Shown here: positions 35,608-53,561 of the stretch, piece after piece
How the letters are laid out: every line of letters begins with the position of its first letter
Position numbering within the stretch: position 1 is the stretch's first letter
DNA from: Spirochaetia bacterium
GTDB lineage: Bacteria > Spirochaetota > Spirochaetia > SZUA-6 > Bin103
Length of the DNA: 64,000 bases
Direction of reading: 5' to 3'
NCBI GenBank assembly: GCA_965262935.1
Contig: OZ253572.1
Span: 6,846,445-6,910,444, forward strand
The notes under the pieces: model-generated
The model's database searches: none
Told to the model about the DNA's origin: nothing
Seen by the model: only the letters and a program-made list of their open reading frames with translations
Translations under genes and position numbers: made by a program

Positions 35608-36532
35608 ATGAGTTTCACGGGCGCGACTAAGAGAGTTGTTCTCCGCCAAATCGGAGGGGGCACTTGCCATGGATAGGCAGTGTAGCAGTCAACGCGTAGG
35701 CGCGCTACCCTTTGGGGGGCGCGGGGGCGCGGATTCGGAAACGATGGAAACAAGCTGCCCGAGCGTAGCTTCGGAGTCGTCAGATCAGCTTCCCAATGCA
35801 GTCTCGCCGCGACGCTCCGGTAGCCGTTGCGAAGTTGTTCCACCGATCGCTACATTCGTGACGCGACACCGCGGCGCTCGTCGGTCTCCAACTCCGTCAA
35901 ACGCTGCAGCGTGACCCGTCCCACCTGACGCAAGACGTCGTCGTTGGCATGCTTCTCAGCTTGTTCCGGTCTACAATCCGGCGCCGACAATCCGGCGCCG
36001 TGGTGGACATTCAACGGACGATATGAGTATTGCTCCTATCATGGCATTAGGAATCGCAGCGACGGGTGGCCGGGGACGTTCCGGCACCTGTCCGGCTTGG
36101 AGGCCGGGGGTCACGCGCCGTCGGCTGGCGACGCGGGGACGTCGACCGATGGTTGGAGGCTCTGCCGAAGGCGTAGGCCGCCGTCGTGGGCGTGCCGGGA
36201 CCGGAGGGAAACCCCATCCGGCAACGCGGCAACCACCGAGTCGGCACGACAGTTATTCGCGGAAACAACCCAAAACCGCCAACAGGAAACTAGTGGGGAT
36301 CAAGCGATCACTGCCGGGTACTCATAACCGTTGGAGCGGAAGGCATGCTTAAGCTGTACTGGGGTGACGCCAAAGCCTGAGCGGGTTGGCGGCGGAGGGC
36401 TTCGAAGGAGAGGGCCAGCGGGCCGCCGCTGCGGGGGGAGCCGGGGGTGCCGGCTCAAGGACGGGGAGCCCGAGAAGCCGCGGTCCCGGAACTGCCACGA
36501 GCCGAGGCTTAGTCGACAGGGTGTTTTCATAC

Positions 36533-39500
36533 ATGGGCGCAAGGAATTACGATGACGGCGTGGCGCAGCCGTTTTTCGAACAACCGATCCTGAATTCGCC
36601 GTATGAATACCCGGCGCGGCACTGGGAACTGGACGAGGACCGGCAACCCACCAACCAGATCGTCGACCGTCGGCGTACCGTATCGTTCATCACGCCGATT
36701 CCCGCCGCCCGCAAGCAACGCGCGGCTCAGCGCGAGCTGGGTGTGGATGATGCCCGCGGCACGGCGGACGAGGACGGTCAGCAATACGAACTGATGAGGA
36801 TGATCGAGAGCGTGCGCCACAGCGTGAACGAGTGGCGCCGGCTGCCCCGAGCCCGGTGGCGGGTTACCGCGGAGACCGCCCGCCTGCTCCATCATTGGCG
36901 CCACCACCAGTTCAGCGACATCCGTCCATTCTTCTGCCAGGTCGAGGCGGTGGAGACCGTGATCTGGCTGACCGAGGTAGCCGCCAGCGCCGGACGCGAC
37001 GGGCGGCAGTTCGTCCAGCGGCTGCAGGAGGCGAACGACCAAGCCAACCCCGGCCTCCCGCGGCTGGCACTCAAACTCGCCACCGGCGCCGGCAAGACGA
37101 CGGTGATGGCGATGCTGATCGCGTGGCAGACGGTCAACGCGGTGCGCCATCCGGGCAGCCAGCGATTCACGCGCGGCTTCCTGGTAGTGACCCCCGGCCT
37201 GACGATCCGCGACCGGCTGCGCGTGCTGCAGCCCAACGACCCGGACAGCTACTACCAGAGCCGCGAACTGGTGCCGCGCGACATGCTCGGCGATCTGCAC
37301 CGCGCCAACATCGTCATCACCAACTACCACGCCTTCATGCCGCGTGAGACGCAGGACATCTCAAGCGGTGGACGCGCCCTGCTGCAGGGGCGCGGCCCGG
37401 AGCTGCACACGCTGGAGACCGAGGGCCAGGTGCTGCAGCGGGTCATGCCCGGCCTGATGGGCATGAAGAACATCATGGCATTCAACGACGAAGCCCATCA
37501 CTGCTACCGCGAGAAGCCCGCGCAGAAGAGCGACGAGGCCAGACTGACGGCAGACGACCGCCGGGAGGCCAAGAAGAACAGCGAAGCCGCTCGGGTATGG
37601 ATTTCCGGCCTCGAAGTGGTGCAGCGCAGGCTGAGTCTGAGCAGGGTGCTCGATCTTTCGGCCACGCCATTCTTCCTGCGCGGCTCCGGCTACGCGGAGG
37701 GCACGCTGTTCCCCTGGACAATGAGCGACTTCTCGCTGATGGACGCGATCGAGTGCGGCATCGTCAAGCTGCCGCGCGTGCCGGTGGCGGACAACATCCC
37801 CAGTGGCGAGATGCCCACGTTTCGGAACCTGTGGGAGCACATCGGCACGAAGATGCCACGAAAGGGGCGCGCCAAGTCCGCGCTGCTCGACCCGCTGAGC
37901 ATTCCCACACGGTTGAAGACCGCCCTCGAAGCGCTCTATGGCCACTACCAGAAGATCTTCGACCAGTGGCGCGAAACGGGCATTCAAGCGCCTCCGTGCT
38001 TCATCGTCGCGTGCAACAACACGGCCACCTCGAAACTGGTCTACGACTACATCTCCGGGTTTCATCGCCAACATGAGGACGGCTCCTCTTCGCTCGAGAA
38101 CGGAAGGCTGGAGTTGTTTCGGAACTTCGACGAATACGGCCACCCGCTCGCCAGACCGCACACCCTGCTGATCGACAGCGAGCAGCTCGACTCCGGGGAA
38201 GGACTCGGCCGGGACTTCCGGGTCGCCGCGAGCGACGAGATCGAGCGCTTCCGTCGCGAGATCGTCGCGCGCACCGGCGACCGCCGCCAGGCCGAAAGCC
38301 TCTCCGACCAGGACCTGTTGCGCGAAGTGATGAACACCGTCGGCGTCGCGGGCCGGCTCGGCGGCTCCACCCGCTGCGTGGTGTCGGTCTCGATGCTCAC
38401 CGAGGGCTGGGACGCGCGCACCGTCACCCACATCCTCGGAGTGCGCGCGTTCGGCACCCAGCTTCTGTGCGAGCAGGTGGTGGGCCGCGCTCTGCGCCGC
38501 CAGTCCTACGATCTGAACGAAGAGGGCCTGTTCAACGTCGAGTACGCGGACGTGCTCGGCATCCCGTTCGACTTCACCGCCCAGCCGGTCGCCGCCAGGC
38601 AGCCGAAGCCGCGCGAGACGGTACCGGTCCGGGCCATCACCCCGGATCGGGACGCCTGCGAGATTCGCTTTCCGCGCGTCCAGGGATACCGCGTGGAACT
38701 GCCGGAGGAACACGTCGACGCGAAGTTCGGCCAGGACTCGACCCTGGTCCTCACCCCGGACATCGTCGGCCCTTCCGTCACGCACAATGCCGGCATCATC
38801 GGCGAGGGCGTCGACCTGAACCTGATCCACCGCCGGGATCTGCGCCCTGCCACGCTGGTCTACCATCTCACCAAGACCCTGCTGGAGAAACACTGGCGCG
38901 CGCCCGATCAGGAGCCGAAGCTGCACCTGTTCGGTCAACTCAAGCGAGTCACCCGCCGCTGGCTGACCGATCACCTGGTCTGCAACGGTGGCACCTACCC
39001 CGCTCAACTCATGTACCAGGAGCTGGCCGACCAGGCGTGCACACGCATCACGCGCGGAATTGTGGCGCGGCATCTCGGGGAGCGCCCGGTCACCGCGGTG
39101 CTGGATCCCTACAACCCGACCGGCTCCACGATCCACGTCAACTTCACCACCTCGAAGCAGCCCCGCTGGCAAACCGACGCCCGCCTGTGCCACGTGAACT
39201 GGGTGGTCTGCGACAGCGAGTGGGAGGCGGAGTTCTGCCGCTTCGTCGAGTCGCAGCCGCAGGTCCACGCTTACGTGAAGAACCACGGCCTCGGGCTGGA
39301 GGTTCCCTACCGGTACGGCTCCGAGGCGCGCACCTACCTCCCCGACTTCATCGTGCTGGTGGACGATGGCCGCGGCGAGGATGATCTGCTCCACCTCGTG
39401 GTCGAGATCAAGGGCTACCGCCGCGAGGACGCCAAGGAAAAGAAGGCCACCATGGACACCTACTGGGTGCCGGGCATCAACCGCTCCGGTGCCTACGGCC

Positions 39501-39607
39501 GCTGGGCCTTCGCAGAGTTCACCGACGTGTATACGATTGGCGACGAATTTGCCGCCGCGACCGGGCTCGTGAATGTCGATGCCGACAAGAAAAGGATTGC
39601 TGGATAG
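36533..39607 (+). CDS. res: type III restriction-modification restriction subunit (Res, SF2 helicase + endonuclease)
   Basis: N-terminal QPFFEQPILNSPYEYPARHWELD, a hallmark of type III Res. Walker A ATGAGKT, DEAH-box-like FNDEAHHCY, motif VI SMLTEGWDARTVTHILGVRAF. Confidence 0.9.
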   Translation: MGARNYDDGVAQPFFEQPILNSPYEYPARHWELDEDRQPTNQIVDRRRTVSFITPIPAARKQRAAQRELGVDDARGTADEDGQQYELMRMIESVRHSVNEWRRLPRARWRVTAETARLLHHWRHHQFSDIRPFFCQVEAVETVIWLTEVAASAGRDGRQFVQRLQEANDQANPGLPRLALKLATGAGKTTVMAMLIAWQTVNAVRHPGSQRFTRGFLVVTPGLTIRDRLRVLQPNDPDSYYQSRELVPRDMLGDLHRANIVITNYHAFMPRETQDISSGGRALLQGRGPELHTLETEGQVLQRVMPGLMGMKNIMAFNDEAHHCYREKPAQKSDEARLTADDRREAKKNSEAARVWISGLEVVQRRLSLSRVLDLSATPFFLRGSGYAEGTLFPWTMSDFSLMDAIECGIVKLPRVPVADNIPSGEMPTFRNLWEHIGTKMPRKGRAKSALLDPLSIPTRLKTALEALYGHYQKIFDQWRETGIQAPPCFIVACNNTATSKLVYDYISGFHRQHEDGSSSLENGRLELFRNFDEYGHPLARPHTLLIDSEQLDSGEGLGRDFRVAASDEIERFRREIVARTGDRRQAESLSDQDLLREVMNTVGVAGRLGGSTRCVVSVSMLTEGWDARTVTHILGVRAFGTQLLCEQVVGRALRRQSYDLNEEGLFNVEYADVLGIPFDFTAQPVAARQPKPRETVPVRAITPDRDACEIRFPRVQGYRVELPEEHVDAKFGQDSTLVLTPDIVGPSVTHNAGIIGEGVDLNLIHRRDLRPATLVYHLTKTLLEKHWRAPDQEPKLHLFGQLKRVTRRWLTDHLVCNGGTYPAQLMYQELADQACTRITRGIVARHLGERPVTAVLDPYNPTGSTIHVNFTTSKQPRWQTDARLCHVNWVVCDSEWEAEFCRFVESQPQVHAYVKNHGLGLEVPYRYGSEARTYLPDFIVLVDDGRGEDDLLHLVVEIKGYRREDAKEKKATMDTYWVPGINRSGAYGRWAFAEFTDVYTIGDEFAAATGLVNVDADKKRIAG

Positions 39608-42574
39608 ATGGCGAAGCGCCGGACGCGCAAGAAACCGATCGAAGTAACGTCCATTACCCACGACGAGGCGTCGCGCCGGAACATCCCCACGGCCGAGTAC
39701 CGGTCGGTGATGGAAAAGGGCGATCAGAGCCCCATCCAGGTGGCCTACCAGCGCCGCAACCGCGACCTGGATCCGCAGCTCGTGTGGCGCGGCAAGGACG
39801 AGCAGGACTGGTCCGACCTCGTGGTGCAGGCGCCGCCGCTGTTCATCCAGGAGAAGGTGCACCCCAAGGTGCTGATCGACGACCTCCTGCGGCGCAGCAA
39901 GGAGGGGCAACAAGCAGCGCACGCCCAACTCGACCTGTTCGCCGACTTCAACGGCCTGCCGGACGACAACGCCCGCACCGAGTTCTACCGACACGACGCC
40001 AACTGGTCCAACCGCATGATCCTCGGCGACAGCCTGCAGGTAATGGCCTCCTTGGCCGAGCGTGAAGGGCTGCGCGGCAAGGTGCAGTGCATCTACCTCG
40101 ACCCGCCCTACGGCATCAAGTTCAACTCCAACTTCCAGTGGTCCACCACCAGCCGCGACGTGAAGGACGGCAAGGCAGAGCACATCACTCGCGAACCCGA
40201 GCAAGTCAAGGCCTTCCGCGACACTTGGCGTGACGGCATCCACTCCTATCTGACGTATCTACGTGATCGGCTGACGGTAGCACGTGATTTGCTTACCGAA
40301 AGCGGTAGTATATTTGTCCAAATCGGCGACGAGAATGTACATCGGGTAAGGGCACTGTTAGATGAAGTCATGGGACAGGATAACTTCGTGGCACAAATTG
40401 CTGCTACCAAGACCGCCGGACAGACAGATGCTCTCTTGCCGTCTTTGTTTGATACACTCCTGTGGTATAAGAGGAGTTCAGAGCGCTGCAAATTCCGACG
40501 TCTCTTTCGGGACAAGGGTGTTGGACAAGATGAAATTGGACAATACTACTTCGTTCAACTGAGTGATGGTACACGGAGCCGGCTGACTGAACGAGAGACA
40601 CTTTCCGGTCATGGTCTTGAACAGGGATCTCCGTTTCGCAGTTCCGATATCTCTAGCAACAAACCCTATAGCCTTGGTCGTCTACCATTTGAGTTCGAAG
40701 GCAGGGTATTTCTTCCCCCTGCAGGTCGTTACTGGACGCACAGTCCGGACGGTCGAGAACGGTTAAGGAAAGCCGACAGGTTGATCGCGATGGGAAAGAA
40801 TATTCGGTTCGTCGGTTTTCTGCAAGATGATCCCGTTTCAACGATTAGCAACCAATGGACTGACACTGGGATCAGCGGCTTCGCAGCCGACAAGGTTTAT
40901 GTCGTCCAGACCAGCCCGAAGTTAATTGAGCGGTGCATCCTGATGGCCACCGATCCTGGCGACCTTGTCTTGGACCCAACTTGTGGCTCAGGAAGCACGG
41001 CCTATGTCGCCGAGCAATGGGGACGGCGCTGGATTACCATCGATACCTCCCGCGTGGCTTTGGCTCTGGCCCGCTCCCGCGTCATGGGTGCACGTTATCC
41101 ATACTATCTGCTCACGGACAGCACGGCGGGCCGGCAGAAGGAAGCAGATATTACGCAGACGATCACGATGAAAGGGCTTGCGGGCCGCGACATCAGGCAG
41201 GGCTTCGTATACGAGCGTGCCACCCACGTCACTCCGAGGTTAATCGCCAACAACGCCGAGATCGACGTGATCTGGGAGCGGTGGCAGGAGACGCTGGAGC
41301 GGCTTCGGGCGGAACTGAACGGCGCGCTTGGTCGCGCGTGGGAGGAGTGGGAGGTCCCGCGAGAGGCTGGCGAGCCGTGGCCCGAGCCGGCGACGGCAGC
41401 GTGGAAACGGTTGCAGTCGGCCCAGTCCGATGCGCAGAGAGCCGACGCACTGTTGGCTTTGAACCACGCTCTGCGCCGCGACTACACCCTTGACGATGTC
41501 CCCGGCCAGCCGCGCGACCCGTGGGACGCGGTCCCCCGAACCGACCTGCACCGCCGCTGGTGGGAGGCGCGCATCGCGCGGCAGAAGGAGATCGATGCCT
41601 CCATCGCCGCCAAGGCGGACTTCGAGTACCTGTACGACAAGCCCTACGAGGATCGGGGCACCGTCCGCGTCGCCGGCCCGTTCACGGTGGAGAGCCTGGC
41701 GCCGCACCGCACGCTCGGCGTCGACGAGAATGACGAACTGATCGACCATCTCGCCGAGACCAAGACCGGCTACGACGGGCAGCAGGAATTCGCGACCATG
41801 ATCCTGGAGCACCTGAACACGTCGGGCGTCCAGCAGGCGCACCGGGAGGACCGCATCTCCTTCACCGCGCTCACCCCGTGGCCTGGTGACCTGATCTGCG
41901 CCGAGGGGCGCTACGTCGAAGGTGACGTGGACACCGGGACCGAACGCCGTGCCGGGATCTTCATCGGCCCGGAGTTCGGCACCGTTGCCCGCCCCGACCT
42001 GGTGGCCGCCGCCCTCGAAGCCGCCGACGCCGACTTCGACGTGCTGATCGCCTGCGCGTTCAGCTACGAGGCACACGCCACCGAGTTCAGCAAACTCGGC
42101 CGCATCCCGATTCTCAAGGCGCGTATGAACGCCGACCTGCACATGGCCGGCGACCTGAAGAACACCGGCAAGGGCAACCTGTTCGTGATCTTCGGCGAGC
42201 CGGACATCGAGATCATCCCGGTCCAGGACAACGCCACTCAGGCGTGCCAGATCCAGGTCAAGGTCAACGGCGTGGACGTGTTCCACCCCAACACCGGCGA
42301 AATCCGCAGCGACGGCCCGGACGGCATCGCCTGCTGGTTCGTCGACACCGACTACAACGAGGAGAGTTTCTTCGTCCGCCACGCCTACTTCCTCGGCGCC
42401 AACGACCCCTACAAGGCGCTCAAGACGACCCTCAAGACGGAGATCCACCGCGACGCCTGGGAAACCCTGCACAGCGACACCTCCCGCCCCTTCGACCGCC
42501 CCGCCTCCGGCCGCATCGCCGTCAAGGTCATCAACCACCTCGGCGACGAAGTAATGAAAGTCTTCCGCGTGTGA
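39608..42574 (+). CDS. mod: type III R-M N6-adenine DNA methyltransferase (Mod) with long C-terminal extension
   Basis: IYLDPPYGI (motif IV DPPY) and LVLDPTCGSGSTAYVA (motif I). Its ATG follows the res stop by 0 nt (TAGATG). The low-GC middle segment at 40250..41100 is the probable target-recognition domain. Confidence 0.9.
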   Translation: MAKRRTRKKPIEVTSITHDEASRRNIPTAEYRSVMEKGDQSPIQVAYQRRNRDLDPQLVWRGKDEQDWSDLVVQAPPLFIQEKVHPKVLIDDLLRRSKEGQQAAHAQLDLFADFNGLPDDNARTEFYRHDANWSNRMILGDSLQVMASLAEREGLRGKVQCIYLDPPYGIKFNSNFQWSTTSRDVKDGKAEHITREPEQVKAFRDTWRDGIHSYLTYLRDRLTVARDLLTESGSIFVQIGDENVHRVRALLDEVMGQDNFVAQIAATKTAGQTDALLPSLFDTLLWYKRSSERCKFRRLFRDKGVGQDEIGQYYFVQLSDGTRSRLTERETLSGHGLEQGSPFRSSDISSNKPYSLGRLPFEFEGRVFLPPAGRYWTHSPDGRERLRKADRLIAMGKNIRFVGFLQDDPVSTISNQWTDTGISGFAADKVYVVQTSPKLIERCILMATDPGDLVLDPTCGSGSTAYVAEQWGRRWITIDTSRVALALARSRVMGARYPYYLLTDSTAGRQKEADITQTITMKGLAGRDIRQGFVYERATHVTPRLIANNAEIDVIWERWQETLERLRAELNGALGRAWEEWEVPREAGEPWPEPATAAWKRLQSAQSDAQRADALLALNHALRRDYTLDDVPGQPRDPWDAVPRTDLHRRWWEARIARQKEIDASIAAKADFEYLYDKPYEDRGTVRVAGPFTVESLAPHRTLGVDENDELIDHLAETKTGYDGQQEFATMILEHLNTSGVQQAHREDRISFTALTPWPGDLICAEGRYVEGDVDTGTERRAGIFIGPEFGTVARPDLVAAALEAADADFDVLIACAFSYEAHATEFSKLGRIPILKARMNADLHMAGDLKNTGKGNLFVIFGEPDIEIIPVQDNATQACQIQVKVNGVDVFHPNTGEIRSDGPDGIACWFVDTDYNEESFFVRHAYFLGANDPYKALKTTLKTEIHRDAWETLHSDTSRPFDRPASGRIAVKVINHLGDEVMKVFRV

Positions 42575-42827
42575 CGACACGGATGTCGTCACAGTCAGCG
42601 CTTGCCGGATCGCTACAAACAAGGCGCACCTCTGACGGACCGAGTCCGGCGCAATCTTGTCTACGCGTAGTGCCGGGATTCCCAATCCCGCTCGGAAGTG
42701 CAAGGTGTGGCGACTCGGGGCGTCTCATGCCCGTGCCAGCGGTGCAGGTGCGTTCCGATACGGTCGAGCTGACGGGTCAGCGCACATTGTTGCAATTGTC
42801 TGCCACTTAATCGATCTCAGAAAGGCT

Positions 42828-43109
42828 ATGTCCAGAATCAGAGTGTTGTTCGATCTAAGTACCGTATCCAAGATGCATGGTCTAGGACGGCTTTCTCAGT
42901 TGGTTCCAATTGGCGGAAACGTAATCGCATATGCATCGACAGCTTTTCTTGAGGAACTTTCCGGTCTGCGTAGAAAGCATCCACGAATGTATGAAGAGAT
43001 CCTTGATTGGTATCGGTCTTGTACGTTCGGACGTTTGATCAAGCCGTGGAGGCAACTCATATACAGTGAGGGATGCGCTGAAATCAGTAAATCGCTGCCT
43101 GATAGATGA
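42828..43109 (+). CDS. hypothetical small protein
   Basis: Low-GC ORF starting MSRIRVLFDLSTVSKMHGLGR. Weak support. Confidence 0.25.
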   Translation: MSRIRVLFDLSTVSKMHGLGRLSQLVPIGGNVIAYASTAFLEELSGLRRKHPRMYEEILDWYRSCTFGRLIKPWRQLIYSEGCAEISKSLPDR

Positions 43110-43341
43110 GCGATACATAGCTGTTATTCATGGTCACGATGGAGAAGAGAGGGCTCGCGAGTACGCTGAATTCAAGAATCGTAGAGATGGCTTACGGTAT
43201 TCAGCCGTCGAGGGCGTCAACGAATGGCGGGTCGAGACGATCAACCATAAATCAAACGACGAGTACCGAGAAGTCACTTTCTACGGAATGTATGACGAGG
43301 ACAGAGCCCGCGAGTACGTTGCATTCAAGAATGCAACATAG
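43066..43341 (+). CDS. hypothetical small protein with internal duplication (EERAREYAEFKN / EDRAREYVAFKN)
   Basis: Low-GC 91-aa ORF; the internal repeat is seen in the translation. Confidence 0.3.
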   Translation: MRDALKSVNRCLIDERYIAVIHGHDGEERAREYAEFKNRRDGLRYSAVEGVNEWRVETINHKSNDEYREVTFYGMYDEDRAREYVAFKNAT

Positions 43342-43347
43342 TGGCAC

Positions 43348-44013
43348 CTATCGCCCGCCCCAACATTGCTGTGAGATTTGCGCCAAGTCATGTCGCAGGG
43401 TTTGCGGTGTGTGACGGTGATGTAGCTCTCTTAGTGTCTTTCCGTGGCAACACTTCACTAAGCGTCCGCTTCCGCACGGGCACAATCTATGTCCGTCATA
43501 TCCGTACTCGCTAAGGAAGCGGATTACTTCTACTGCCTCCTTCTCACATCTCAGGTCGAAGGCGTCCATGTAGAATTGTACTATCCCGGCAGAACCATGT
43601 TTTTGTTCCCCGAAAGGATGAACATCATGTTTCTCCCAATAGCGATATCCGTAAAGGAAGGGGACCAAAAGACGGTTTACGAACCCCAAAAGAGTCGGCT
43701 CGTTGTGAAATATGATGCGCGCCTTAATGGGAACGCAGAGGCAGAGCGTTCTGTCTGGATTTACGTGTTCGTACTCTTTAATTGAACCGCCGGTTTCCCT
43801 GGCTATGGGCAAGTCGTCTGGATACGATTCCGGTATGCACAATTCAACGTCGAAACAGGTCACAATGGACTCGAGTCCACCATAGTGTGCCCTAAACGGC
43901 AAAGCACCAGACAGGGCGGTTCCACCAACTTTCCTTTGTACTCTGGTCAGCTCTCGGTGGGTTTGCTGCAAGTCTCCGATCTGGCGCGACAATTCCTCGC
44001 TCAAACCCTCCAC
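43348..44013 (-). CDS. E2-like ubiquitin-conjugating-fold protein (short Cap2-like) with C-terminal SEC-C zinc motif
   Basis: EHVNPDRTLCLCVP matches the E2 HPN...C(L) catalytic signature. C-terminal CPCGSGRLVKCCHGK is a SEC-C motif. Overlaps the CD-NTase gene by 13 nt. Confidence 0.65.
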   Translation of the reverse strand: MEGLSEELSRQIGDLQQTHRELTRVQRKVGGTALSGALPFRAHYGGLESIVTCFDVELCIPESYPDDLPIARETGGSIKEYEHVNPDRTLCLCVPIKARIIFHNEPTLLGFVNRLLVPFLYGYRYWEKHDVHPFGEQKHGSAGIVQFYMDAFDLRCEKEAVEVIRFLSEYGYDGHRLCPCGSGRLVKCCHGKTLRELHHRHTPQTLRHDLAQISQQCWGGR

Positions 44014-45185
44014 GGCTTAGGGCCTTCTGCGATACTAATATTGGGAACGGGGATCGCTGGCGTTTCGGGCGAGATCAACGCAAGACGCGACGACGTGGCC
44101 GGGATGCCTAGGGCTGCGGCGAGAATACGGTCAGGGTTGGAACGACCAGTACCCAATATGTCAACCAAGTCCTCCTTCAGCTTAGCCACCCAACGGAAGA
44201 ACGCTCTGGCACGAGCGTGTCCATCCTCGTGCCATCGGTCGGCGAAATTCTCGTCTTGGTTGACAGGGTTACCAATATACCAAGTCCCATCTGGCTTGCG
44301 CCTGATAAGCTGCCTTCCTGCGAGGCTGCCTGTTGGCAATCGTCCTGCCATTAGTACGGCATGATCATCGAGCTGGCTTACAATTCCGGCAAGCGCTGCG
44401 TAAATGTCAAGTTCTCCTTGATACAGGTGCCCAGCGAGCGTGGTAATGATCATGGAGATTGGCCCATAGTCGCTGTTGCTGAACATAACGTCGCGGTGAC
44501 GTTTCATTATCTGGATGCTTCTCTGTAAGGGAGTACGGACTAGTTGATCGGGAACGTCGTCGATGGAAGCGTACACCGCCGCTTCCTGTCGAAAAATGGA
44601 CTCTTTCTGAGATGCGGCAACCCGCGCGAACGCTCCTCTGTTGCGTCCAGAGAACCATTCAGCGAAGCCACGGGGGTCGCTTGGCAACCAGTCATAGGTT
44701 CGGCCCTGCCTGTCCGTAATGGCAATCGCCGTAGGCCGACCGACTTTACTGTCAGGAACGCATGGCAGTATGTCCATGTGGAACCCGATGTTATCTTGTT
44801 CGGCATATTCAAGTGTCCAGCATCGACGGCCCTCATCATCGAGAAGGCCGAGATAGGTCTTGTGTTCGCGGAGGCGATCCCCGACCATCACCTTAACGGT
44901 CTTAGGTTCCGTTAGATATCGCGGAATAGACAGCTCGCACACCAGGTCGATATCATAGTCAGCCTCCGCCCCATGCTTGATCGGTCTTACGACAGTACCC
45001 AGGCGGAATGAACCCTGAGTGTAAATCGATGGAGTTTCGGACGAACCCTGATAGTTCCCGTTCTCCAGCCACTCTCCAACGGACTTGTACCTTTCGACTG
45101 CTTGTTGGTACTTGCTCGGTGAGATGTCGATGTCTTGTGCGATTCTGTTAAGAAACTCCGAATACCTCGCGTTGTCAATTGGCAT
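44001..45185 (-). CDS. cGAS/DncV-like nucleotidyltransferase (CD-NTase, SMODS domain)
   Basis: GSFRLGTVVRPIKHGAEADYDIDLV fits [GS]x..[DE]h[DE]h, with a third acidic site at HMDILP. Length is 394 aa. Confidence 0.8.
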   Translation of the reverse strand: MPIDNARYSEFLNRIAQDIDISPSKYQQAVERYKSVGEWLENGNYQGSSETPSIYTQGSFRLGTVVRPIKHGAEADYDIDLVCELSIPRYLTEPKTVKVMVGDRLREHKTYLGLLDDEGRRCWTLEYAEQDNIGFHMDILPCVPDSKVGRPTAIAITDRQGRTYDWLPSDPRGFAEWFSGRNRGAFARVAASQKESIFRQEAAVYASIDDVPDQLVRTPLQRSIQIMKRHRDVMFSNSDYGPISMIITTLAGHLYQGELDIYAALAGIVSQLDDHAVLMAGRLPTGSLAGRQLIRRKPDGTWYIGNPVNQDENFADRWHEDGHARARAFFRWVAKLKEDLVDILGTGRSNPDRILAAALGIPATSSRLALISPETPAIPVPNISIAEGPKPWRV

Positions 45186-45197
45186 AGTGTTCTCCGT

Positions 45198-46163
45198 CTA
45201 TAGTGTGTAGCATGGAATGAATTCCTCTGCTGTGGTGTCAAAGAACGTGGGCGTGAGGACGGGTTTTCTATCTCGTCCTAGAGAATGCCCAAGTCCCTTC
45301 AAATCGTCGATGACCTTCGCATCATCGAATTTGTATTGGTCTTGCGGTACTGTGTAGTCGATCCGGTGTAACGACTGGCGGTCATGCTCATGACCAAGAA
45401 GCAACCTAGTCATGCCTAGCGATCCATTGGACTGACCGTCCATGAACAGTTTTACGGCGTTTAGTCCGATTCGCACGAGACCAGACCGCTTGTGGACCGT
45501 GTATGTCTCGTCCAGGCAACCGAGGCTTAGCATGGAGAGAGACTCTGCTGGCCATTTCAGCACTGCGATAGCCTCGACGGCGGCAATTGCAGCTGGATTG
45601 TTGGCCCATATACCACCGTCAATCAGGCTCGCACCTTGTTTAGTGACATGCGGTGGAAAGATCGTCGAGGCGGCCGACGTGGCCATAGCTGCATCAATGG
45701 CAGGGGAGCGATAATCTGTCCGAAAGCGAGGATGGTGAGCGGTCTTGTAGACGTATACAGACTTGGCTTGCGGATTCCACGTTGGGACCACTAAACGGGT
45801 TCGAGAATCTCCGATGAGCTTGCTGCCTATCGTCTCTGTGAGTGCCGTCCGGAGTGCCTCGGGGCCGTACTTGGACCGAAATATCTGTCGGATGCGACGG
45901 GCAAACCGGGGCCCTCCGAATATCTTTGGGCCATGTTCTTCGTAGAAGTCGAGAACATCTGAAGCTCTATACCCAAGCCCAAGCGCAATCCCTATTATGC
46001 CGCCAGTAGACGTTCCCACGATTAGATCGAAATAAGAGCCTATTGGCTCTTGTAGGTCTTTCTCTAGCTCTGCGAGGAAGGCTGCGGGGAACGTACCAAG
46101 GATGCCTCCTCCGTCAATAGAGAGGATGCGCCGTTTCTTGTCGATGGGCCCCTGAGGTTCCAA
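45198..46163 (-). CDS. patatin-like phospholipase (CapV-like CBASS effector)
   Basis: IDGGGILGTF oxyanion motif, GTSTGG nucleophile elbow (GxSxG), and LIDGGIWANNP carrying the catalytic Asp (DG motif). Confidence 0.85.
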   Translation of the reverse strand: MEPQGPIDKKRRILSIDGGGILGTFPAAFLAELEKDLQEPIGSYFDLIVGTSTGGIIGIALGLGYRASDVLDFYEEHGPKIFGGPRFARRIRQIFRSKYGPEALRTALTETIGSKLIGDSRTRLVVPTWNPQAKSVYVYKTAHHPRFRTDYRSPAIDAAMATSAASTIFPPHVTKQGASLIDGGIWANNPAAIAAVEAIAVLKWPAESLSMLSLGCLDETYTVHKRSGLVRIGLNAVKLFMDGQSNGSLGMTRLLLGHEHDRQSLHRIDYTVPQDQYKFDDAKVIDDLKGLGHSLGRDRKPVLTPTFFDTTAEEFIPCYTL

Positions 46164-46417
46164 GGATCGATGTGCTCCACGCTACCGAAGTTCCGTCGCG
46201 GGGATGCCGGTGCGTCCAGTAGCTCTCTTTTTTGTGGTGGTGAGAAGCTACGTATTCCCAGGATGGCGTGTCAACCCCGAATCTTTGAGCGGCCGACCAC
46301 CATAGCAACGGTGTCGGTGGTCATACCGAGCGGTCGTAAGGTATACGCGTCCGAGAGGACCATGACAGGCCGATTGGGTTGAGACGATTCCCGTAATATG
46401 CTACAGTATCAGCATAT

Positions 46418-46790
46418 ATGGCATGGAAGCGAACGCAGCACAAAGCGCCAGGGAAGTACTACCGCAACGGGATCACGCTGATCGACCTGATGCGGATGTT
46501 CCCGGACGACGCAACCGCCGAGCAGTGGTTCGTCGAAGGCCGCTGGCCTGCCGGCGTGCGCTGTCCGTACTGCCACAGCGACCGAGCCACCCGCTGCACG
46601 CACAAGACCATGCCGTTCCGCTGCCCGAGCTGCCGCACGTTCTTTTCGGTCAAGACGGACACGGTAATACACGCCTCCAGGGTCGGCTACCAGAAATGGG
46701 CCATCGCCATCTACCTGATGACCACGCGGATCAAGGGCATCTCAAGCATGAACATGCACCGCGAGATCGGCGTCACCCAAGAAGACGGCG
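46418..46790 (+). pseudogene. IS1595-family (ISXO2-like) transposase N-terminal fragment
   Basis: The zinc-ribbon region CPYCHS...CPSCRTFFSVKTDTVIHASRVGYQKWAIAIYLMTTRIKGISSMNMHREIGVTQ matches the family. The DDE domain is absent because the frame degenerates after ~125 aa. Confidence 0.65.
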
Positions 46791-47176
46791 TGGTATATGT
46801 GCCACCGGATGCTCCGATGCTGCTACCGGGGCCCACCAAGCGGTCCTTGCTGAATTCTATAGGTAGTTGCCGCGGCACTACTCCAGGTAATTCCCCACCG
46901 CGGTTCGCGACACCTTCAGCGCGCCTCCAATCGCCCGCTCGCTGCTGCACACCCACGGGGCGAGGCGGTTCAAACAAGGTTGCCAATGCGAATGGTACGG
47001 AAGATATCGTTGGTCGCCGAGCGCAAATCGCGCCAAATGACTTGCCCGAGCTACCGCCGGCTATCGTCGCCGGGCAGCAGTATCACTACGGGTTACCGGT
47101 CAAAGGAGGCAAACTCCAGGATGCTGCCGCCCGATCCATTTCCACACCTCTTGACGGAACCTTCCCGGGGTGCGGG

Positions 47177-48154
47177 TCAAGCGTCCGACGTGGCAACGGG
47201 TCTGTCCCATTCTTCGGAACCGGACCAAATGCGATAAACGGTTGGTTGTCGCTCAGCGCCAGGGACGTTTGACTTCCCTACAACAATCATTTCGTGACAA
47301 CGATCTACTATTCGGCTACGCGCTGACAAGTCCGTCCTTACCGGTGAAATCAACCCGGCTACACCTGATATATCAACTCCGTCCTTGCGAGGATCACTAT
47401 TTGTCACCAATTCCTGCATCATGCGAATGATGTACAAACCAGAATAGATTACCACCAACTGAACGTAAGAGAGGCATCCGAAATGGACGCAGTTTGCCAT
47501 TCTATAGCGCTTTCCTGCGCCTCTATCTATGTCATCCGGTTTCACGCCAACGGCCACAACCGCGGGGAGCTGATCAGTATTGGCGTGAGCACCTTCGAAA
47601 TCTGCTACTAATTTCAGCGCATCCCTCACTGTATATCCAACGGAATTGACCTGCATAATCTTCATCTCAAGCCACTTATCCATACTGATCGGGCTTCCAC
47701 TTACATCGAATGGACTTGTCATTTTACACCATCCGTCTTCTTGAAATTCGATACCGTACAACCGCCCAATCTTTATTTTATGCTCACTCTCTGGTACCAC
47801 GACCTGTTCTCTCCTCCCACCCTCGAACCCCAACACCCATTCCTGACGCTGGGTACGCCGCTTCAATATTGCCTTACTGTACTTGCCTTTTTCTCCACCC
47901 ACTGACAGGAACTGCGGATCCAAAACAACTCTCTGCAGCAATCTAGCCTGTCCGTCCAAGCAAAGTTTTCGTATAGGTACTGACATCTGTCTGACGGCTG
48001 TTCGCAAAAGCAGTAGGGCGGTGTTCTCATTTGAATGAGAATAGGCGATTACCAACCGCTGTGCAGCTGTTGCGAGTTCCGTGACACACTCTAACATAGC
48101 ATTCACGGTCATAGGATGAACCTTTTTGTTCCAGTTCCACTCGATGCTTTCCAA
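47177..48154 (-). CDS. hypothetical protein (about 300 aa), low-GC
   Basis: Long ORF with distinctly lower GC over 47400..48150. The 3' end (47177..47300) is in high-GC DNA and may be over-extended. No motif recognised. Confidence 0.4.
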   Translation of the reverse strand: MESIEWNWNKKVHPMTVNAMLECVTELATAAQRLVIAYSHSNENTALLLLRTAVRQMSVPIRKLCLDGQARLLQRVVLDPQFLSVGGEKGKYSKAILKRRTQRQEWVLGFEGGRREQVVVPESEHKIKIGRLYGIEFQEDGWCKMTSPFDVSGSPISMDKWLEMKIMQVNSVGYTVRDALKLVADFEGAHANTDQLPAVVAVGVKPDDIDRGAGKRYRMANCVHFGCLSYVQLVVIYSGLYIIRMMQELVTNSDPRKDGVDISGVAGLISPVRTDLSARSRIVDRCHEMIVVGKSNVPGAERQPTVYRIWSGSEEWDRPVATSDA

Positions 48155-49008
48155 GACAATGGCCTCCCTGGCTTTAGCGCGAAAGAAAATTATGAGCTGT
48201 ACGATCGTCGGATTCTTTTTGTCACGACTGGTGGCGTCGTTCGCGATAGACCCGCATACTCACGATGTTCGAGAAGAGAACGCGGTGTCTTCGTTTTTAG
48301 GAGGCACCGAACTGATTCTTCCAAGCGGTTTCGAGTCCCTCAGGACCTCACAGCGGTGCGCCGCTTGACTTGTGTGGTAAGCACACTGGGGACAACCGGT
48401 TTCCAATGCCAACGCATGCTGTGCTGTTCGTGCCGTCGTTGTGCTCCTCCTGGTGGACAGCGGCGTTCTGTTCGCGAAGGGCCGCTGTCAGGTCTCGGGC
48501 GCAGCTGGCGACCCGCTTCATGCCCGTTCATGCTCCCAATGCCGCCGTAGAGCCTGCAGCCATTTCGGCCGGGGTGGTGCCAGCCGGTCAACCTCCGTAT
48601 CTCTCGGTCAGCAGTCGCCCTCTTAGCAAACGTAACCCACTCCGCCATCGGGAGTCGAGGCGAGGGCATAGAACGGAGGTCGTTCCGGAAATGATTCGGA
48701 GAGAGACACGGTAACGGTCAGGAGCGGACTGACACGAGCGGGGCGTTGAGACAGCGAAGTTCGTCGACGGAGCCCTGGCGGGGATGCTCTACCGCTTTCC
48801 GAATGCCGTAGACCCGGAGCTGTCCGACCGGCGGCCGACCACCGCCGCCTGATCTCGACGAGGAGGGGCGGGTTGACAACCAACGGAATACACCTCACAA
48901 TACCCCCCCCTCACCGTCCAACTGACGGTGGCCACCTCAATTTTCAATTGCCGATCCCGTGGTATCTACGGCTTTTCTATAGATGGCCGAGGGGGAGATC
49001 ATCAAGTA

Positions 49009-49545
49009 ATGTCGAAACGAGGATTGCGGCTCCGTGACGCATTTTCGCCTTTGGAACCGAAATCTAACCATGTTCATCTTTGTGATGCGTTCGGGGTAGT
49101 ACAAAACGTCATTAGAAGATATTCCGATAAGTTGTGGCCGGATGGTGCTAAAGAGTGCGATAAATGGAATTCCATTTGTAATGAGCTAATTGACCTGACA
49201 AATGGAGTATCACATAGAGAAGAAGACAGGTCATTTGAGGATGTACTTCGTGACCTAATTCATGTCTTCCAGCATGGCGAGGCACGGATTGCCGAGTTAT
49301 TAGACTCTAACTCCATCACAATTCCAGAAGAAGAAATCACACAACATGATGAAGCTATTTTTCAGTGGATGGACAGGGTATTTCGGGCACTTGTTTATGG
49401 TGCTATCAATTCACGTTTACCCGACAAGCAAGACTCTACTTTGGTAAGAATAACCTTGTTTATGGATGGATCGCCATCGAAAGAGGTTTTTGAACATACA
49501 CCCATGCCTAAACCACCGAGACGATATCGCAAGAAATATATGTAA
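49009..49545 (+). CDS. hypothetical protein (178 aa), low-GC
   Basis: Start MSKRGLRLRDAF; low-GC island ORF with no motif. Confidence 0.4.
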   Translation: MSKRGLRLRDAFSPLEPKSNHVHLCDAFGVVQNVIRRYSDKLWPDGAKECDKWNSICNELIDLTNGVSHREEDRSFEDVLRDLIHVFQHGEARIAELLDSNSITIPEEEITQHDEAIFQWMDRVFRALVYGAINSRLPDKQDSTLVRITLFMDGSPSKEVFEHTPMPKPPRRYRKKYM

Positions 49546-50240
49546 AATGGCGCCCGGCTGTTGCCGAGCGCGCGGTCGTCCAATTCATACGCATATCTAA
49601 CATGCGGATGATTACAATACCCTTCACAACTAGATGCCAAGTTGATCACAATCGTGGTGAAGGACTGAATTGATAACCTCAACCATGTTATTCCTCCGGG
49701 AATGACGTTGGAGCGACGCTTACCTATCCCCTTGGCATTTAGGTATAGGGACTCTTGCGATGGTCAAATTGGGTTACTTATAATACAGTTGTTGATGGTG
49801 GCGGAGCTGCTCCACCACCAACGGGAGGCCGATCTACCGGAGCCGGCCTATCCATGAAGCTAATAGGAACGGCTCCTATGGTACTTGCGCTTATCGTTCT
49901 GGTAGTACTGATCACAGGATTGATCTGGCTCGAATACCGGGTATGGCGCGGCGTCCTCTTAGGGAAGTGGGAAAGAAAGAGGAGCGTGTGTGCGCGCCGC
50001 CGCCCATGACGCCTCCGACAGCGGCTGGCGACCGGCGCCCGCATCGTACGCCTCAATACCCGGCGCATCCGCCACGTGCAGCCGCAACCGCGGCTGCCGA
50101 GTGGCTGCATCTGGGCGGTGGCGGTCACAGCGACTCGCGCACCGGCGTCGCGCGGATCCAACGGCCCGGATTCGCTGCGACATCCTCCCCGCGGTGCAGC
50201 ATCCGCACCACCACGCCGCCCCGCGCCGCAGCCGGGCCGC

Positions 50241-51192
50241 TCACGTTGCCGTCGGCGGCGGCACCTTCATCGCCACCGCGCCGCTTCCCTCATCCCCGCG
50301 GTCGGCGGCCGGCGCCTCCGGGTCGAGTACCGCCAGGTCGGCGTCGCAGCCCGGGTGGAGGCGCCCCTTCGCCGGCAGGCCCAGGAGCCGCGCCGGCTGC
50401 CAGCACAGCAGGGCCGCCAGCTCCTCCAGCGTGATGTGCCCCGGTGCGACCCCCGCCCGCCACAGGCGCGCCAGGAACTGGCGGTCCGCGGCGCCCTCCT
50501 CGGGCCCGAGGCTCACCATGCGCACCGTCCAGGAGCGCACCGCCGGCCAGCACTCCGCGGCAGCGGGCGGCTCGGCGAGCAGCAGGTGCGCCGGCGCATG
50601 CCGGCCGCATCGGCGGGAGCCAGCACCACCCGGCCGCCGTCGAGCGGCAGCGGCAGCCCGCCGACGCTGCGCTCCATGACGCGCGCGTCGTCGCTGAGCA
50701 CCACCAGGGTCGCCCCGCAGTGGCCGGTCACCCGCACCAGGTCGTCGTCCCAGCCCGGCTCCGTCAGTATGCGGTCGTCGACCGCGAACGCCGCGCATCC
50801 CCGCCCGAACACCGCCTCCGGCAGCACTTCGAGCTCCGGCTCCAGCCCCCGCAGCAGCGGAATCGGCACCGCATCCGCCGCGTACGCCGCATCGGTGTCG
50901 GGCTCGGCGTACCCCGGCCTCGGGGCAGGCGCGGCGAGACTCGCAACCGGCACGCCCACCGTGGTGGCCGGGCAGCCGCCGCGCCCGGCCAGCGGCATGC
51001 CGGAACGGCACAGCAACACCGGGCCGGGAAACACCAGCTTGCCGGTCAGATCACGCCACCCCGCCCCCTCGGCCGCATCCGAGCGCGCCATGCGCAGCGC
51101 GCGCACCACCCCGCCGCCCATCTCCAGTCGGCCACGAACCGCCCGTCGGCATGCACCACCAGCCCCTGATACAGCGTGCCACCCATCGCCGC
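50241..51192 (-). pseudogene. amidohydrolase (dihydroorotase-like) repeat copy B, frameshifted
   Basis: Two overlapping ORFs (50241..51011 and 50513..51337) together reproduce copy A, e.g. MGGTLYQGLVVHADGRFVAD and GRLHPGCDADLAVLDPEA, at about 90% nucleotide identity but in different frames. Confidence 0.65.
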
Positions 51193-51394
51193 CGCCGCGA
51201 CGGCCGCCGGCATCGACGGCGGGATCACCGGGCACTCCGGGCGGGTCGGCCTCGCTTCCGAGCTCACCGCCCGCGGCCCCAGTGCCACCGAGATGATGCT
51301 TGCCGGCGGGTGGACAACGGCGCGCATGGTCGCCCACTACCCACTACTCCGCCGGCACAACATTGTTCGGCGTAGTAGGGTAGGGAAGCGATGA
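51176..51394 (+). pseudogene. tyrosine recombinase (integrase) C-terminal remnant (copy 3)
   Basis: ITGHSGRVGLASELTARGPSATEMMLAGGWTTARMVAHYPLL matches the HxxR ... E.M.AG.W....M...Y catalytic region. It abuts the start codon of amidohydrolase copy B on the opposite strand. Confidence 0.5.
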
Positions 51395-51594
51395 AGGTAA
51401 GTGTAGAGATTAAAGACTATCCCATGCCGGAGGAGGCGCAGTTGGAGCAGGCCAACACGGACCGGGAGGCTATCGTGGCGGCCCTGGAGGTGGTGGGACG
51501 GTTGGGTGTTCCGGGTAAGGAAGTGCTGCAGAAGGCTCTGTCACGTGTTGATCGGGCCCGAAGTGAGGCTGCGGGCTTGAGGGTTGAGGAGTGA
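51391..51594 (+). CDS. hypothetical small protein (67 aa)
   Basis: Starts 4 nt inside the integrase remnant end. Weak support. Confidence 0.3.
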   Translation: MKVSVEIKDYPMPEEAQLEQANTDREAIVAALEVVGRLGVPGKEVLQKALSRVDRARSEAAGLRVEE

Positions 51595-51961
51595 AGTTAG
51601 GAGTGATGTCAGTCGACGGGCGGCCACCCGATTGCACCGGGCCGCGGCAGCAGTAGATCGAGAGGCGGCTGGATGGAAGGACCTCGATACGCATATCGAC
51701 GACGTGCGGGCACTGCGGGCGATTGGACTTGCAGTGTGCGGACGCAACAACCTGATCCCCTCCGACTTCGCTGATATCTCGGCCGTCGAGATGGAGCGGG
51801 AGTTCGACCAAGGCGTCCACGGTGTCCGAATCACCTTCACGGTGAGCAACCATGCACTGGAGAAGGTGAGTTCGCAGGAGGTGTCGGACGCGATCAACGC
51901 TCTTGTCGCGCCGCTGAGCGAGCCGGAAGAGGACGACGAGCAGTCGGCTGCGAGCGGGTGA
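51584..51961 (+). CDS. hypothetical protein (125 aa)
   Basis: Overlaps the previous small ORF by 11 nt, a possible two-gene module. No motif. Confidence 0.3.
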   Translation: MRSEVRSDVSRRAATRLHRAAAAVDREAAGWKDLDTHIDDVRALRAIGLAVCGRNNLIPSDFADISAVEMEREFDQGVHGVRITFTVSNHALEKVSSQEVSDAINALVAPLSEPEEDDEQSAASG

Positions 51962-52019
51962 GGAAAGCATCAGCGATGGCACCGTGATAGTGTCGTCGCG
52001 TGGAACCCGGTGTGGTGTG

Positions 52020-52499
52020 CTACGTCGGGATCGGTAGATGGCCGATGCGGTACCCGCTTGGCTCTGCGACAAACTTCTCAAGATCGACTCCGGAAAGGAG
52101 AAGAACTGCCTTGTACGCTTCCAGCAAATCCTCGTGGATTTCCTCCAGGTCACGAAGCATCACGTCACGACCGTCATCGGAATTTCGGCGGAGGTTGTGC
52201 TGCAAGTAGAAGGAGTGTATCAGTCGATTGCGTGAGGCCAAAGCATCGTTGAGCAGTTGCTCGAGATCCGCGATGGAATCCCCTATCGAACCGAGGGACT
52301 GGACCAGTTGACCGAGAGTCTGCTTGGTGATCTGCTTATAGATTGCGGTCGCTTTGCGTGGATTGGAGCGATCGAGTAAACCAGCATCGATACACTTGTG
52401 CGTCAGGAGCAACGTGCCCAACTCAGTCTCCAAAAGCTGGGCGGCCTCACATACTTCGCCGAACTTCCTATAAACATCATATAGCGTCGCCATACTCAT
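52020..52499 (-). CDS. hypothetical protein (159 aa), low-GC
   Basis: Distinct low-GC ORF with no motif. Confidence 0.45.
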   Translation of the reverse strand: MSMATLYDVYRKFGEVCEAAQLLETELGTLLLTHKCIDAGLLDRSNPRKATAIYKQITKQTLGQLVQSLGSIGDSIADLEQLLNDALASRNRLIHSFYLQHNLRRNSDDGRDVMLRDLEEIHEDLLEAYKAVLLLSGVDLEKFVAEPSGYRIGHLPIPT

Positions 52500-53168
52500 A
52501 TCGCCTTTCTTCCGAATAGGGATGAACCGGCCGAGAACGCCGGTAACATCGCCGACGAAGACTGCCGATAGGCCACACTATACCGAACCTCGGTCGTGCG
52601 CTGCTCGAACTCAGCCCGCGTGGGACCGGTTCGCGCTGTCTCTTACGGACGACTCTCTGGGCCGTCAACGGTCGCGCGGGAGCGAGGGCGGCCAGCGGCC
52701 GGTGCGTGTGGGCTGTGGGCGGCTGTCGGGGGCTGTCGGGGACTGTCGGCGGTGGTGAAGGCCACGTTGGGGCGGGTGGCGGCCCCGGCGGAGTAGCCGC
52801 CTGGCCTCCAGGTCGCGGGCCGGCCCCGCCCTACGAATCCCGCGTGAACCTCCACCCATAGTCACCGTATGGCGCATTGCGGTTCGGCTCCAGAGTCCAG
52901 CGCAGCGCTCCCGGCTCACCCGCTACCTGTTGATCCCGGAACCATAGCGACACCCGAAGCCGGTTGGCCTCGCCGCTTGGCGCGTACGCAAAGCGGAGCG
53001 TTGCGCCCACCCACTATTGCAGGTCCGGGCGATGCTCGGTCACCGACCACCAAGTCCACCATACGCGCGACCGGGAGGACGGCGCCGCCACGTAAGCGGC
53101 CGCCCCAGGGCCGCCGGGAGCGCGTCCAGAGGCAGATCAGGCACCGCCACGCGCTCAGGGGCCGCTCG

Positions 53169-53560
53169 TCAGCAGGCGGGCGACAGCGGTCGCGGCCTCG
53201 TGGCCGTGTCGCATTCCCTTACACCTTCCAGGGTGACAGTAGACCAGCCCCGCACCCTGGTCAGGTTGGCCCCAATCAGCATCGCTTCGTTTAGATTGGC
53301 ACCGGTCAGGTCCGCGCCGGTTAGATCCGCACCGCCAAGGTTAACACCACTAAAGTCGGCATCGCGCAGGATTGCGTTGCTCAAATCCGCCCTTACAAAA
53401 CCGGAGAACTGCAACTTCGCGCCGGTCAGGTCGGCAAAGCTCAGGAACGCTCGGTCCCCGTACACACGCAACGTGGCGTAGCGCAGCTGCGCGCCATTCA
53501 GATGCGCCCCGGTCAGGTCTGCAAACATCAGGGTTGCGCCGCTCAAGCCCGCCTCGAATA
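53169..53560 (-). pseudogene. secreted pentapeptide-repeat protein paralogue 3, N-terminally truncated
   Basis: Pentapeptide repeats and C-terminal VRGWSTVTLEGVRECDTATRPRPLSPAC. The N-terminal side is replaced at ~53560 by a 150-bp amidohydrolase fragment. Confidence 0.55.
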
Positions 53561-53561
53561 G

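Follow-up and report, generated by a model that had tools for sequence, protein, structure and literature searches.

The operon studied here, at 43348-46163 on the minus strand of a 64,000-nucleotide stretch of contig OZ253572.1 (assembly GCA_965262935.1, a Spirochaetia bacterium; the whole stretch is called the window below), belongs to CBASS, the anti-phage systems that signal by means of cyclic oligonucleotides. It encodes an E2-fold regulator with a putative SEC-C zinc knuckle next to a cyclase that ends in a K-P-W tail. What we did not find described is this pairing of a SEC-C E2 with a K-P-W partner tail, in place of the glycine rule of characterised E2-regulated cyclases; the operon type is already known. 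From the sequences, we consider it probable that the three genes form an apparently functional abortive-infection operon of CBASS type II-short, in which the SEC-C extension reads the K-P-W tail and Cys91 of the E2 processes or captures the cyclase. A wider reading, to which we give somewhat less than an even chance, is that the SEC-C E2 and a [K/R]-P-W-x(2-4) tail would form a portable E1-independent module that differs in mechanism from Cap2 and SmE2 (the E2 of Serratia marcescens), both of which depend on glycine. In such a module the zinc-stapled extension would read the Trp tail, Cys91 would act at a non-glycine residue, and the pair would have been plugged onto at least three unrelated kinds of enzyme, namely nucleotidyltransferases related to cGAS and DncV (CD-NTases), Pycsar cyclases and metallo-beta-lactamase (MBL)-fold proteins.

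The three same-direction open reading frames (ORFs) fill 43348-46163 exactly, and encode a CapV-like patatin phospholipase effector (45198-46163, 321 aa), a clade-G-like CD-NTase (44001-45185, 394 aa) and a stand-alone E2-fold (UBC-like) regulator (43348-44013, 221 aa), all on the minus strand. Each protein matched a PADLOC model, the patatin protein over residues 9-311 as Effector/Phospholipase (PDLC00758, 2.4e-97), the CD-NTase as Cyclase (PDLC00780, 1.7e-115) and the regulator over residues 5-216 as E2 (3.5e-67); Pfam matched the patatin and cyclase proteins and gave no match for the E2 protein. The 221-aa protein has the E2/UBC fold and catalytic Cys of type II-short systems, the cyclase has the GS...DxD...D signature, and the adjacent effector is of a known CBASS class, patatin. 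By these profile matches, the three genes together are an E2-only operon of CBASS type II-short, which is a catalogued type. A first-pass annotation of this DNA, made without database searches, had claimed a complete operon of this type, and the PADLOC, Pfam and NCBIfam matches bear it out, the significant CD-NTase and E2 matches being those that it had named as a check. Its description of three co-directional, tightly packed genes in a low-GC block was equally accurate. The patatin and CD-NTase genes are separated by 12 nt, with GGAG 7 nt ahead of the CD-NTase ATG, and the CD-NTase and E2 genes share 13 nt, the GTG start of the E2 lying within the Pro391-Trp392 codons of the CD-NTase. The guanine-plus-cytosine (GC) fraction is 0.50-0.56 across about 42.5-50 kb, against 0.64-0.77 in the flanks.

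The active-site motifs of the two enzymes were also found as first described. In the patatin protein, the GGGxxG, GxSxG and DGG motifs occur as GGGILG at 18-23, GTSTG at 50 with nucleophile Ser52 (46008-46010), and DGG at 182 with Asp182; the protein matched Pfam Patatin (6.4e-28) and the NCBIfam CBASS cGAMP-activated phospholipase equivalog CBASS_lipase (232.9 bits, cutoff 200). The GS...DxD motif of the CD-NTase lies at G58-S59 and D78-x-D80, followed by FHMD138, and G58, S59, D78, D80 and D138 were invariant in alignments of its relatives. Pfam SMODS (8.4e-11) and DncV-like_NTFase (1e-6) matched this protein with scores that exceed their cutoffs, and NCBIfam cGAS scored 49.9 bits, below its cutoff of 150. 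The closest solved structure was VcCdnG (9WOO; 3e-59 with the single sequence and 2e-122 with a profile), and SmCdnG (8HSB_A) matched at 1.4e-27; because these two are the nearest enzymes, we call the cyclase clade-G-like. Its predicted structure was of moderate confidence (pLDDT, the predicted local distance difference test, 71.9). Inspected for the C-terminal E2-binding motif of SmCdnG, a helix with a three-stranded sheet, it showed helices at 351-359 and 366-370, followed by low-confidence coil at 375-394. The first-pass annotation had also given the gene order as patatin, CD-NTase and E2 without a Cap3/JAB gene, and hidden Markov model scans that included the neighbouring genes agree with it: the E2 protein has no E1 region, and Pfam, NCBIfam and PADLOC gave no match to E1, JAB or any PADLOC model in the five neighbouring ORFs (42657-43341 and 46418-49545). 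A less favourable view of the locus, that of a decayed operon, was rejected, because all three proteins match their PADLOC profiles over almost the whole length. In comparison with the main clade the E2 lacks about 22 residues, a shortness that it shares with its nearest relatives (P0002-P0005, 221-230 aa), so that this is a subclade trait and not a truncation.

The E2 protein carries HVNP at residue 83 (His83, 43765-43767), LCL with Cys91 (43741-43743), and His139 (43597-43599), in line with the HxNP...C(L) signature first read from the sequence. In its C-terminal helical extension lies a SEC-C-type zinc knuckle, CPCGSGRLVKCCH, at residues 178-190 (43444-43482, minus strand; C178-P-C180-GSGRLVKC-C189-H190), with the CxCx8CH spacing of the SecA type. 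In searches against SecA zinc peptides (1OZB and 1TM6), the single sequence matched at E 0.04, profile A1 at 0.0031 and the broader A2 at 2.7e-5. The Pfam SEC-C model matched 15 of 26 family members (best E 1.1e-4), the window E2 itself falling below Pfam reporting, and two more distant members exceeded the SEC-C cutoff of 20.4 bits, with 25.9 and 33.2 bits. In the structure model of the E2, the SEC-C region had a pLDDT of about 94.

The conservation of this knuckle is as strict as that of the catalytic cysteine. Among 26 relatives of 44-77% identity, C178, P179, C180, C189 and H190 were invariant, as was C91, and among 58 sequences reaching down to 22% identity the sole invariant residues were P69, C91, H139, C178, C180 and C189, with H83 and H190 nearly invariant; the active-site residues proposed in the first-pass annotation thus proved conserved. 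In the full-length cluster representatives listed, CxCx7-9C[H/C/D] was present in 139 of 146, the other seven comprising six with a CxCx8C-x-H variant and one scrambled motif. A profile search of 1.84 billion cluster representatives put the family at 2,298 clusters (50% identity) at E<=1e-3 and 1,631 at E<=1e-10, and it corresponds to seven PADLOC E2 models (859, 861, 865, 870, 871, 872 and 833). Distant members on plasmids of Bacteroidota, Bacillota, Campylobacterota and Vibrio differ from one another in the model that they match best (859, 865, 872 and 833), all of them adjoin cyclases and effectors, and RefSeq already names several plasmid members "SEC-C metal-binding domain-containing protein". 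Since C178, C180 and C189 are invariant in these 58 sequences and the motif recurs in nearly all listed representatives, we regard SEC-C as a defining mark of a large family of stand-alone CBASS E2s. The earlier view of it as an unusual C-terminal appendage on a CBASS E2 therefore needs correction on both counts, because the knuckle is as conserved as Cys91 and lies internally, with 31 further conserved residues after it. The same annotation had described the protein as a Cap2 reduced to its E2 part; E2-only it is, but it belongs to a separate stand-alone family and is not a truncated Cap2, and sequence-profile searches of the PDB with the E2 family found neither Cap2 nor SmE2. No relative of the family was found in the phage collection, and a literature search found no paper linking SEC-C to a CBASS E2.

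The second element of the main finding is the C-terminal tail of the CD-NTase, K390-P391-W392-R393-V394 (44004-44018, minus strand), which has the signature [K/R]-P-W plus 2-4 residues. P391 and W392 are the only invariant residues of the tail and were constant in 24 CD-NTases that share 30-66% identity, as they were in 44 more closely related ones. An xPW motif stood near the C-terminus of 117 of 118 close CD-NTase homologs; in 109 of the 117, two or three residues come after it. The tail was also present in 33 of 35 genome loci, the exceptions being one gene disrupted by an insertion sequence (IS) and one with a 13-residue extension, and in all eight plasmid operons having an intact upstream gene. 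In six distinct metagenomic operons (seven loci, two with the same operon), KPW was found in four, K-P-Y in one and K-Q-W in one. As a background, the same loci hold 484 other ORFs of 150 aa or longer, only one of which ends in such a tail.

This tail was not confined to CD-NTases. CD-NTases upstream of SEC-C E2s end in VKPWCRS in Haliscomenobacter, TKPWRN in Ligilactobacillus, PKPWGDTY in Cytobacillus and AKPWKNI in Aliarcobacter, and the CD-NTase upstream of a SEC-C-family E2 in Vibrio gigantis ends in PKPWFKQ. An unannotated ORF upstream of a SEC-C E2 in Enterococcus ends in SPWSR, a Pycsar cyclase (PADLOC PycC, 2.3e-116) upstream of the E2 on Chryseobacterium plasmid pA2BH1 in NRPWLKRS, and an MBL-fold protein upstream of a SEC-C E2 on a Runella plasmid in AKPWQRG. 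The tail goes with the SEC-C E2 and not with a particular enzyme class. No description of an association between SEC-C E2s and K-P-W partner tails was found in the literature searched.

Several of these loci deserve a description of their own. The Chryseobacterium operon (locus L043, 1889-4010; NZ_MN657149.1, 38191-40312) encodes a PycTM effector, PycC and an E2/SEC-C protein; to our knowledge, no Pycsar system regulated by an E2 has been described. On Runella slithyformis plasmid pRUNSL03 (locus L044, 2273-6184), the MBL-fold protein is followed by the E2/SEC-C protein, a hypothetical protein, a second MBL-fold protein that matches the PADLOC candidate PDC-M48B (1.9e-28), and a PDC-M48A-like ORF; the MBL-fold protein would be a third enzyme class coupled to a SEC-C E2. 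Two proteins, P0082 (651 aa) and P0144 (616 aa), are apparent fusions of CD-NTase and E2/SEC-C that keep R-P-W and Q-P-W, respectively, between the domains, and could be either real fusions or frameshift artefacts of metagenomic sequence or assembly.

These tails bear directly on an alternative in which the mechanism is identical to that of S. marcescens, the knuckle is a mere structural staple, and K-P-W is the E2-binding tail of this clade, cleavage and conjugation taking place at another, small residue of that tail. The S. marcescens E2 is a Cys/His protease-ligase that uses H87 and C101 to cut off the one residue following Gly406 of the cyclase, and the cyclase is then carried on C101 as a thioester or on K159 as an isopeptide, and a conserved C-terminal Gly has been reported for E2-CBASS cyclases (bioRxiv 10.1101/2022.05.25.493364; PMC12948482). 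The window E2 has the same fold and, as judged by sequence, the same Cys/His/His arrangement, E2-CBASS cyclases are mostly of clade G with a longer C-terminal E2-binding region (PMC12948482), and the window tail, E-G-P-K-P-W-R-V, does include a Gly, all of which would suit such a mechanism. However, this Gly is not conserved, relatives having S-P-A-K-P-W or G-A-A-K-P-W instead, and any Gly at all within the last four residues was present in just 16 of 118 homologs, whereas P391 and W392 are the tail residues that never vary; moreover, the SmCdnG tail cannot be aligned with the window cyclase family past residue 368. We therefore consider an S. marcescens-identical mechanism unlikely. The K-P-W tail, which the first-pass annotation did not mention, sets the SEC-C E2 family apart from characterised E2-CBASS.

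The reading that we prefer, in which the SEC-C extension recognises the K-P-W tail, can be put as a sequence of steps. On phage infection, the clade-G-like CD-NTase would make a cyclic dinucleotide. The signal would probably be 3'2'-cGAMP or another isomer of cGAMP, since 3'2'-cGAMP is what VcCdnG (PMC12804361) and EcCdnG (PMC12991175), the nearest enzymes that have been characterised, produce. As in the CapV family, the nucleotide would activate the patatin phospholipase, membrane lipids would be degraded, and the infected cell would die. The E2-fold protein would regulate the cyclase through the C-terminal tail of the latter. We propose, from the association of the two features, that the zinc-stapled extension bearing the SEC-C motif forms the recognition site for the K-P-W tail, and that Cys91, aided by His83 and His139, would process or capture the cyclase at or beside Trp392, which is a non-glycine residue.

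Some observations weigh against this reading. Neither the 26 relatives nor the 58 more diverse sequences have an invariant or nearly invariant Lys in the E2, and hence no conserved isopeptide acceptor. Residues 375-394 of the CD-NTase were predicted as coil with pLDDT below 50 in the isolated chain, which fits a docking tail but is uninformative. Consensus scans of the operon gave no clear promoter or terminator, and none above shuffled expectation. Finally, 24 of 48 operons have AGG, AGA or AGC directly after the Trp codon and thereby a GGAG 6-12 nt ahead of the start of E2; this GGAG may act as the Shine-Dalgarno sequence of the E2 gene, and the residue after Trp would then be conserved partly at the nucleotide level.

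Taken to its end, this last point becomes an alternative in which [K/R]-P-W is a nucleotide-level artefact, TGG-AGG (GGAGG) being kept as the ribosome-binding site of the E2 gene and not for the sake of a protein tail, and the window E2, whose GTG start lies inside CCG-TGG, might seem to be a case of it. The codons tell otherwise. Trp is retained before CGA, CGG, TTT, CTC, CAA, TCG and TGT, and also in three Bacteroidota operons, and Bacteroidota make little use of Shine-Dalgarno sequences. The two apparent CD-NTase-E2 fusions, in which no internal ribosome-binding site is needed, have R-P-W and Q-P-W all the same. Pro and Lys are kept although their codons differ synonymously between operons (CCG 17, CCT 15, CCA 9 and CCC 6 for Pro; AAA 24 and AAG 16 for Lys), which indicates that the tail is under selection at the amino-acid level. 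On this codon evidence the Shine-Dalgarno explanation of the tail was largely rejected, and it is the least probable of the alternatives that we weighed.

The missing acceptor lysine leads to another possibility, namely that the E2 is a non-covalent inhibitor or sensor, whose knuckle docks another partner (the ribosome, the membrane or a SecB-like chaperone, as in SecA, YecA and YchJ) or senses zinc or redox state, and which frees the cyclase on infection. The SEC-C motifs of SecA do bind SecB and zinc (PDB 1OZB, 1TM6 and 1SX0), and an E2 without a conserved acceptor lysine would suit a protein of this kind. But Cys91 and both His residues are as conserved as the zinc ligands in sequences of 22-77% identity, and a pure scaffold would not need them. 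A purely non-covalent role is improbable in our judgement, only slightly less so than the nucleotide artefact, and recognition of the tail by the SEC-C extension with processing or capture by Cys91 remains the account that we favour.

The gene pair itself is widespread. A CD-NTase gene lies directly upstream of the E2 gene in 35 species-level genomes from many phyla and groups, including Spirochaetia, Planctomycetota, Latescibacterota, Rhodothermales, Nitrospira, Binatia and Alpha-, Beta- and Gammaproteobacteria, and some of these loci carry shortened or interrupted genes. A patatin gene stands upstream of the cyclase in 29 of the 35. Among the six loci without a patatin match, L030 ends at a contig edge, and in L035 the gene upstream of the cyclase encodes an HNH-SAVED effector. 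In L020, L029, L032 and L036 an effector of 2TM-SAVED type (366-402 aa) is encoded downstream of the E2, confirmed by profile models in L020 and L032. A divergent pair of genes for a helix-turn-helix (HTH) protein and an IrrE/M78 peptidase was seen upstream in L020 (3616-4588), L032 (3729-4659) and L036 (3715-4633), and the IrrE-like peptidase of L020 matched PADLOC capP (1e-15), which suggests transcriptional control of the CapH/CapP type in these three loci. The window operon has no such HTH and IrrE-like pair.

The low-GC block that holds the operon was probably acquired horizontally by an uncultured genome of high GC. FtsK, encoded at 9784-12486, has its nearest named relatives in metagenome-assembled genomes of Spirochaetaceae and Spirochaetales, which makes an uncultured Spirochaetia-like bacterium the probable host. 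A metagenome contig (ENA ERZ25071132) is 99.5% identical to window 36526-54018. A type III restriction-modification pair adjoins the operon on the plus strand (36386-42574), with a 1073-aa res product (ResIII/RE_endonuc) and a 988-aa mod product (N6_N4_Mtase). In the middle of the mod gene GC falls to 0.52-0.55 (40000-41000), possibly in a swapped target-recognition region, and in the near-identical metagenome contig the mod gene was called as two genes of 372 and 628 aa. Immediately upstream of the operon is a degenerate IS1595-family transposase ORF (46418-47272, plus strand), with a Zn_ribbon_IS1595 domain match of 1e-7 and a transposase core match of only 35 residues. Two ORFs in the same low-GC block, at 47177-48154 (minus, 325 aa) and 48928-49545 (plus, 205 aa), had no Pfam, NCBIfam or PADLOC match and may be further island cargo. 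Direct repeats of 0.65 kb at 19086-19738 and 50303-50894, which are 92-96% identical and parts of an amidohydrolase-like gene, flank a 31-kb segment with the restriction-modification system, the CBASS operon and a PIN-domain gene, and the second copy accounts for the GC spike of 0.77 at 50-51 kb. These repeats are possible island boundaries and, being placed around both defence systems, make the neighbourhood consistent with a mobile defence island.

Other features of the window were recorded as well. A PIN_12 protein is encoded at 34582-35670 (minus), and the stretch corresponding to about 31.3-32.4 kb carries HicA/HicB genes as called on a related contig. Low-GC sequence also contains an AAA_15/AAA_21 ATPase gene (54514-56484, minus) and a UvrD-like helicase gene (2488-4677, plus), and an ISAzo13-type DDE transposase (6.9e-145) is encoded at 59470-60696 (plus). 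The ORF at 14662-15981 (minus) consists largely of tandem 21-nt (heptad) repeats, at least about 39 of them, at 14709-15900 with a 63-nt super-period, and its product is a 439-aa coiled-coil protein with weak coiled-coil Pfam matches only.

Taken by itself, the operon is one more instance of CBASS type II-short, from an uncultured Spirochaetia-like genome. Its importance lies in the family to which its E2 belongs. In the literature searched, the published mechanism of E2-only CBASS rests on one system, that of S. marcescens, and the hallmarks of that system, a terminal glycine and a short E2, are absent from the very large SEC-C E2 family. The association of SEC-C E2 with K-P-W offers a concrete idea, open to test, of how E2-only defence regulators of a large and uncharacterised class may work. 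If the tail marks the cyclase as a substrate of the E2, bacteria would not confine ubiquitin-like regulation to Gly/Ala C-termini, and more defence enzymes under E2 control could be looked for simply by the K-P-W at their ends.

In comparison with known systems, the gene set is the same as in catalogued CBASS type II-short (Millman 2020 classes; PADLOC models), with no difference at the catalogue level. S. marcescens, for which structures of CdnG-E2 are available (PDB 8HSB, 8YJY and 9KKB), provides the one characterised E2-only system. SmE2 is short, with 159 modelled residues, whereas the window E2 has 221 aa and a SEC-C extension; C101, H87 and H152 of SmE2 are paralleled, by sequence alone, by C91, H83 and H139 at similar spacing, but the acceptor K159 has no conserved Lys counterpart in the window E2 family, and the two E2s are undetectable to each other by sequence profile. 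SmCdnG ends in Gly406 plus one residue, in contrast to K-P-W plus two residues without a conserved Gly in the window cyclase, and aligns with the family of the latter only to residue 368 of 407. The S. marcescens papers make no mention of zinc, and the preprint gives only two conserved Cys (bioRxiv 10.1101/2022.05.25.493364; PMC12948482).

The capV-dncV-cap2-cap3 operon of Vibrio cholerae has its genes in the order seen in the window, patatin, cyclase and then E2-containing regulator, as the first-pass annotation had noted, and the effectors belong to the same NCBIfam family. However, type II CBASS of V. cholerae has a Cap2 E1-E2 fusion, a Cap3 JAB protease and a Gly/Ala C-terminus, while the window operon has no E1 and no JAB; the V. 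cholerae cyclase is DncV and that of the window is clade-G-like. In the VcCdnG-Cap5 system (PDB 9WOO; PMC12804361), VcCdnG and the window cyclase have the P-K-P-W tail in common, but the effector is an HNH-SAVED protein (Cap5) and not a patatin. No discussion of an E2 gene was found by term search of the VcCdnG-Cap5 paper (PMC12804361). Vibrio gigantis plasmid p1 (locus L040, 2573-5612) carries a cyclase, by eye near-identical to VcCdnG, between an HNH-SAVED (Cap5) gene and a SEC-C-family E2 gene, and the knuckle of this E2 is degenerate (CPCGCGDRLGSCD). Finally, the SEC-C motif of SecA (PF02810) has the CxCxSGx(6)CH spacing and the GSG core in a form identical to that of the window E2, the difference being that the window counterpart is a putative zinc site embedded in the E2 regulator of a defence system.

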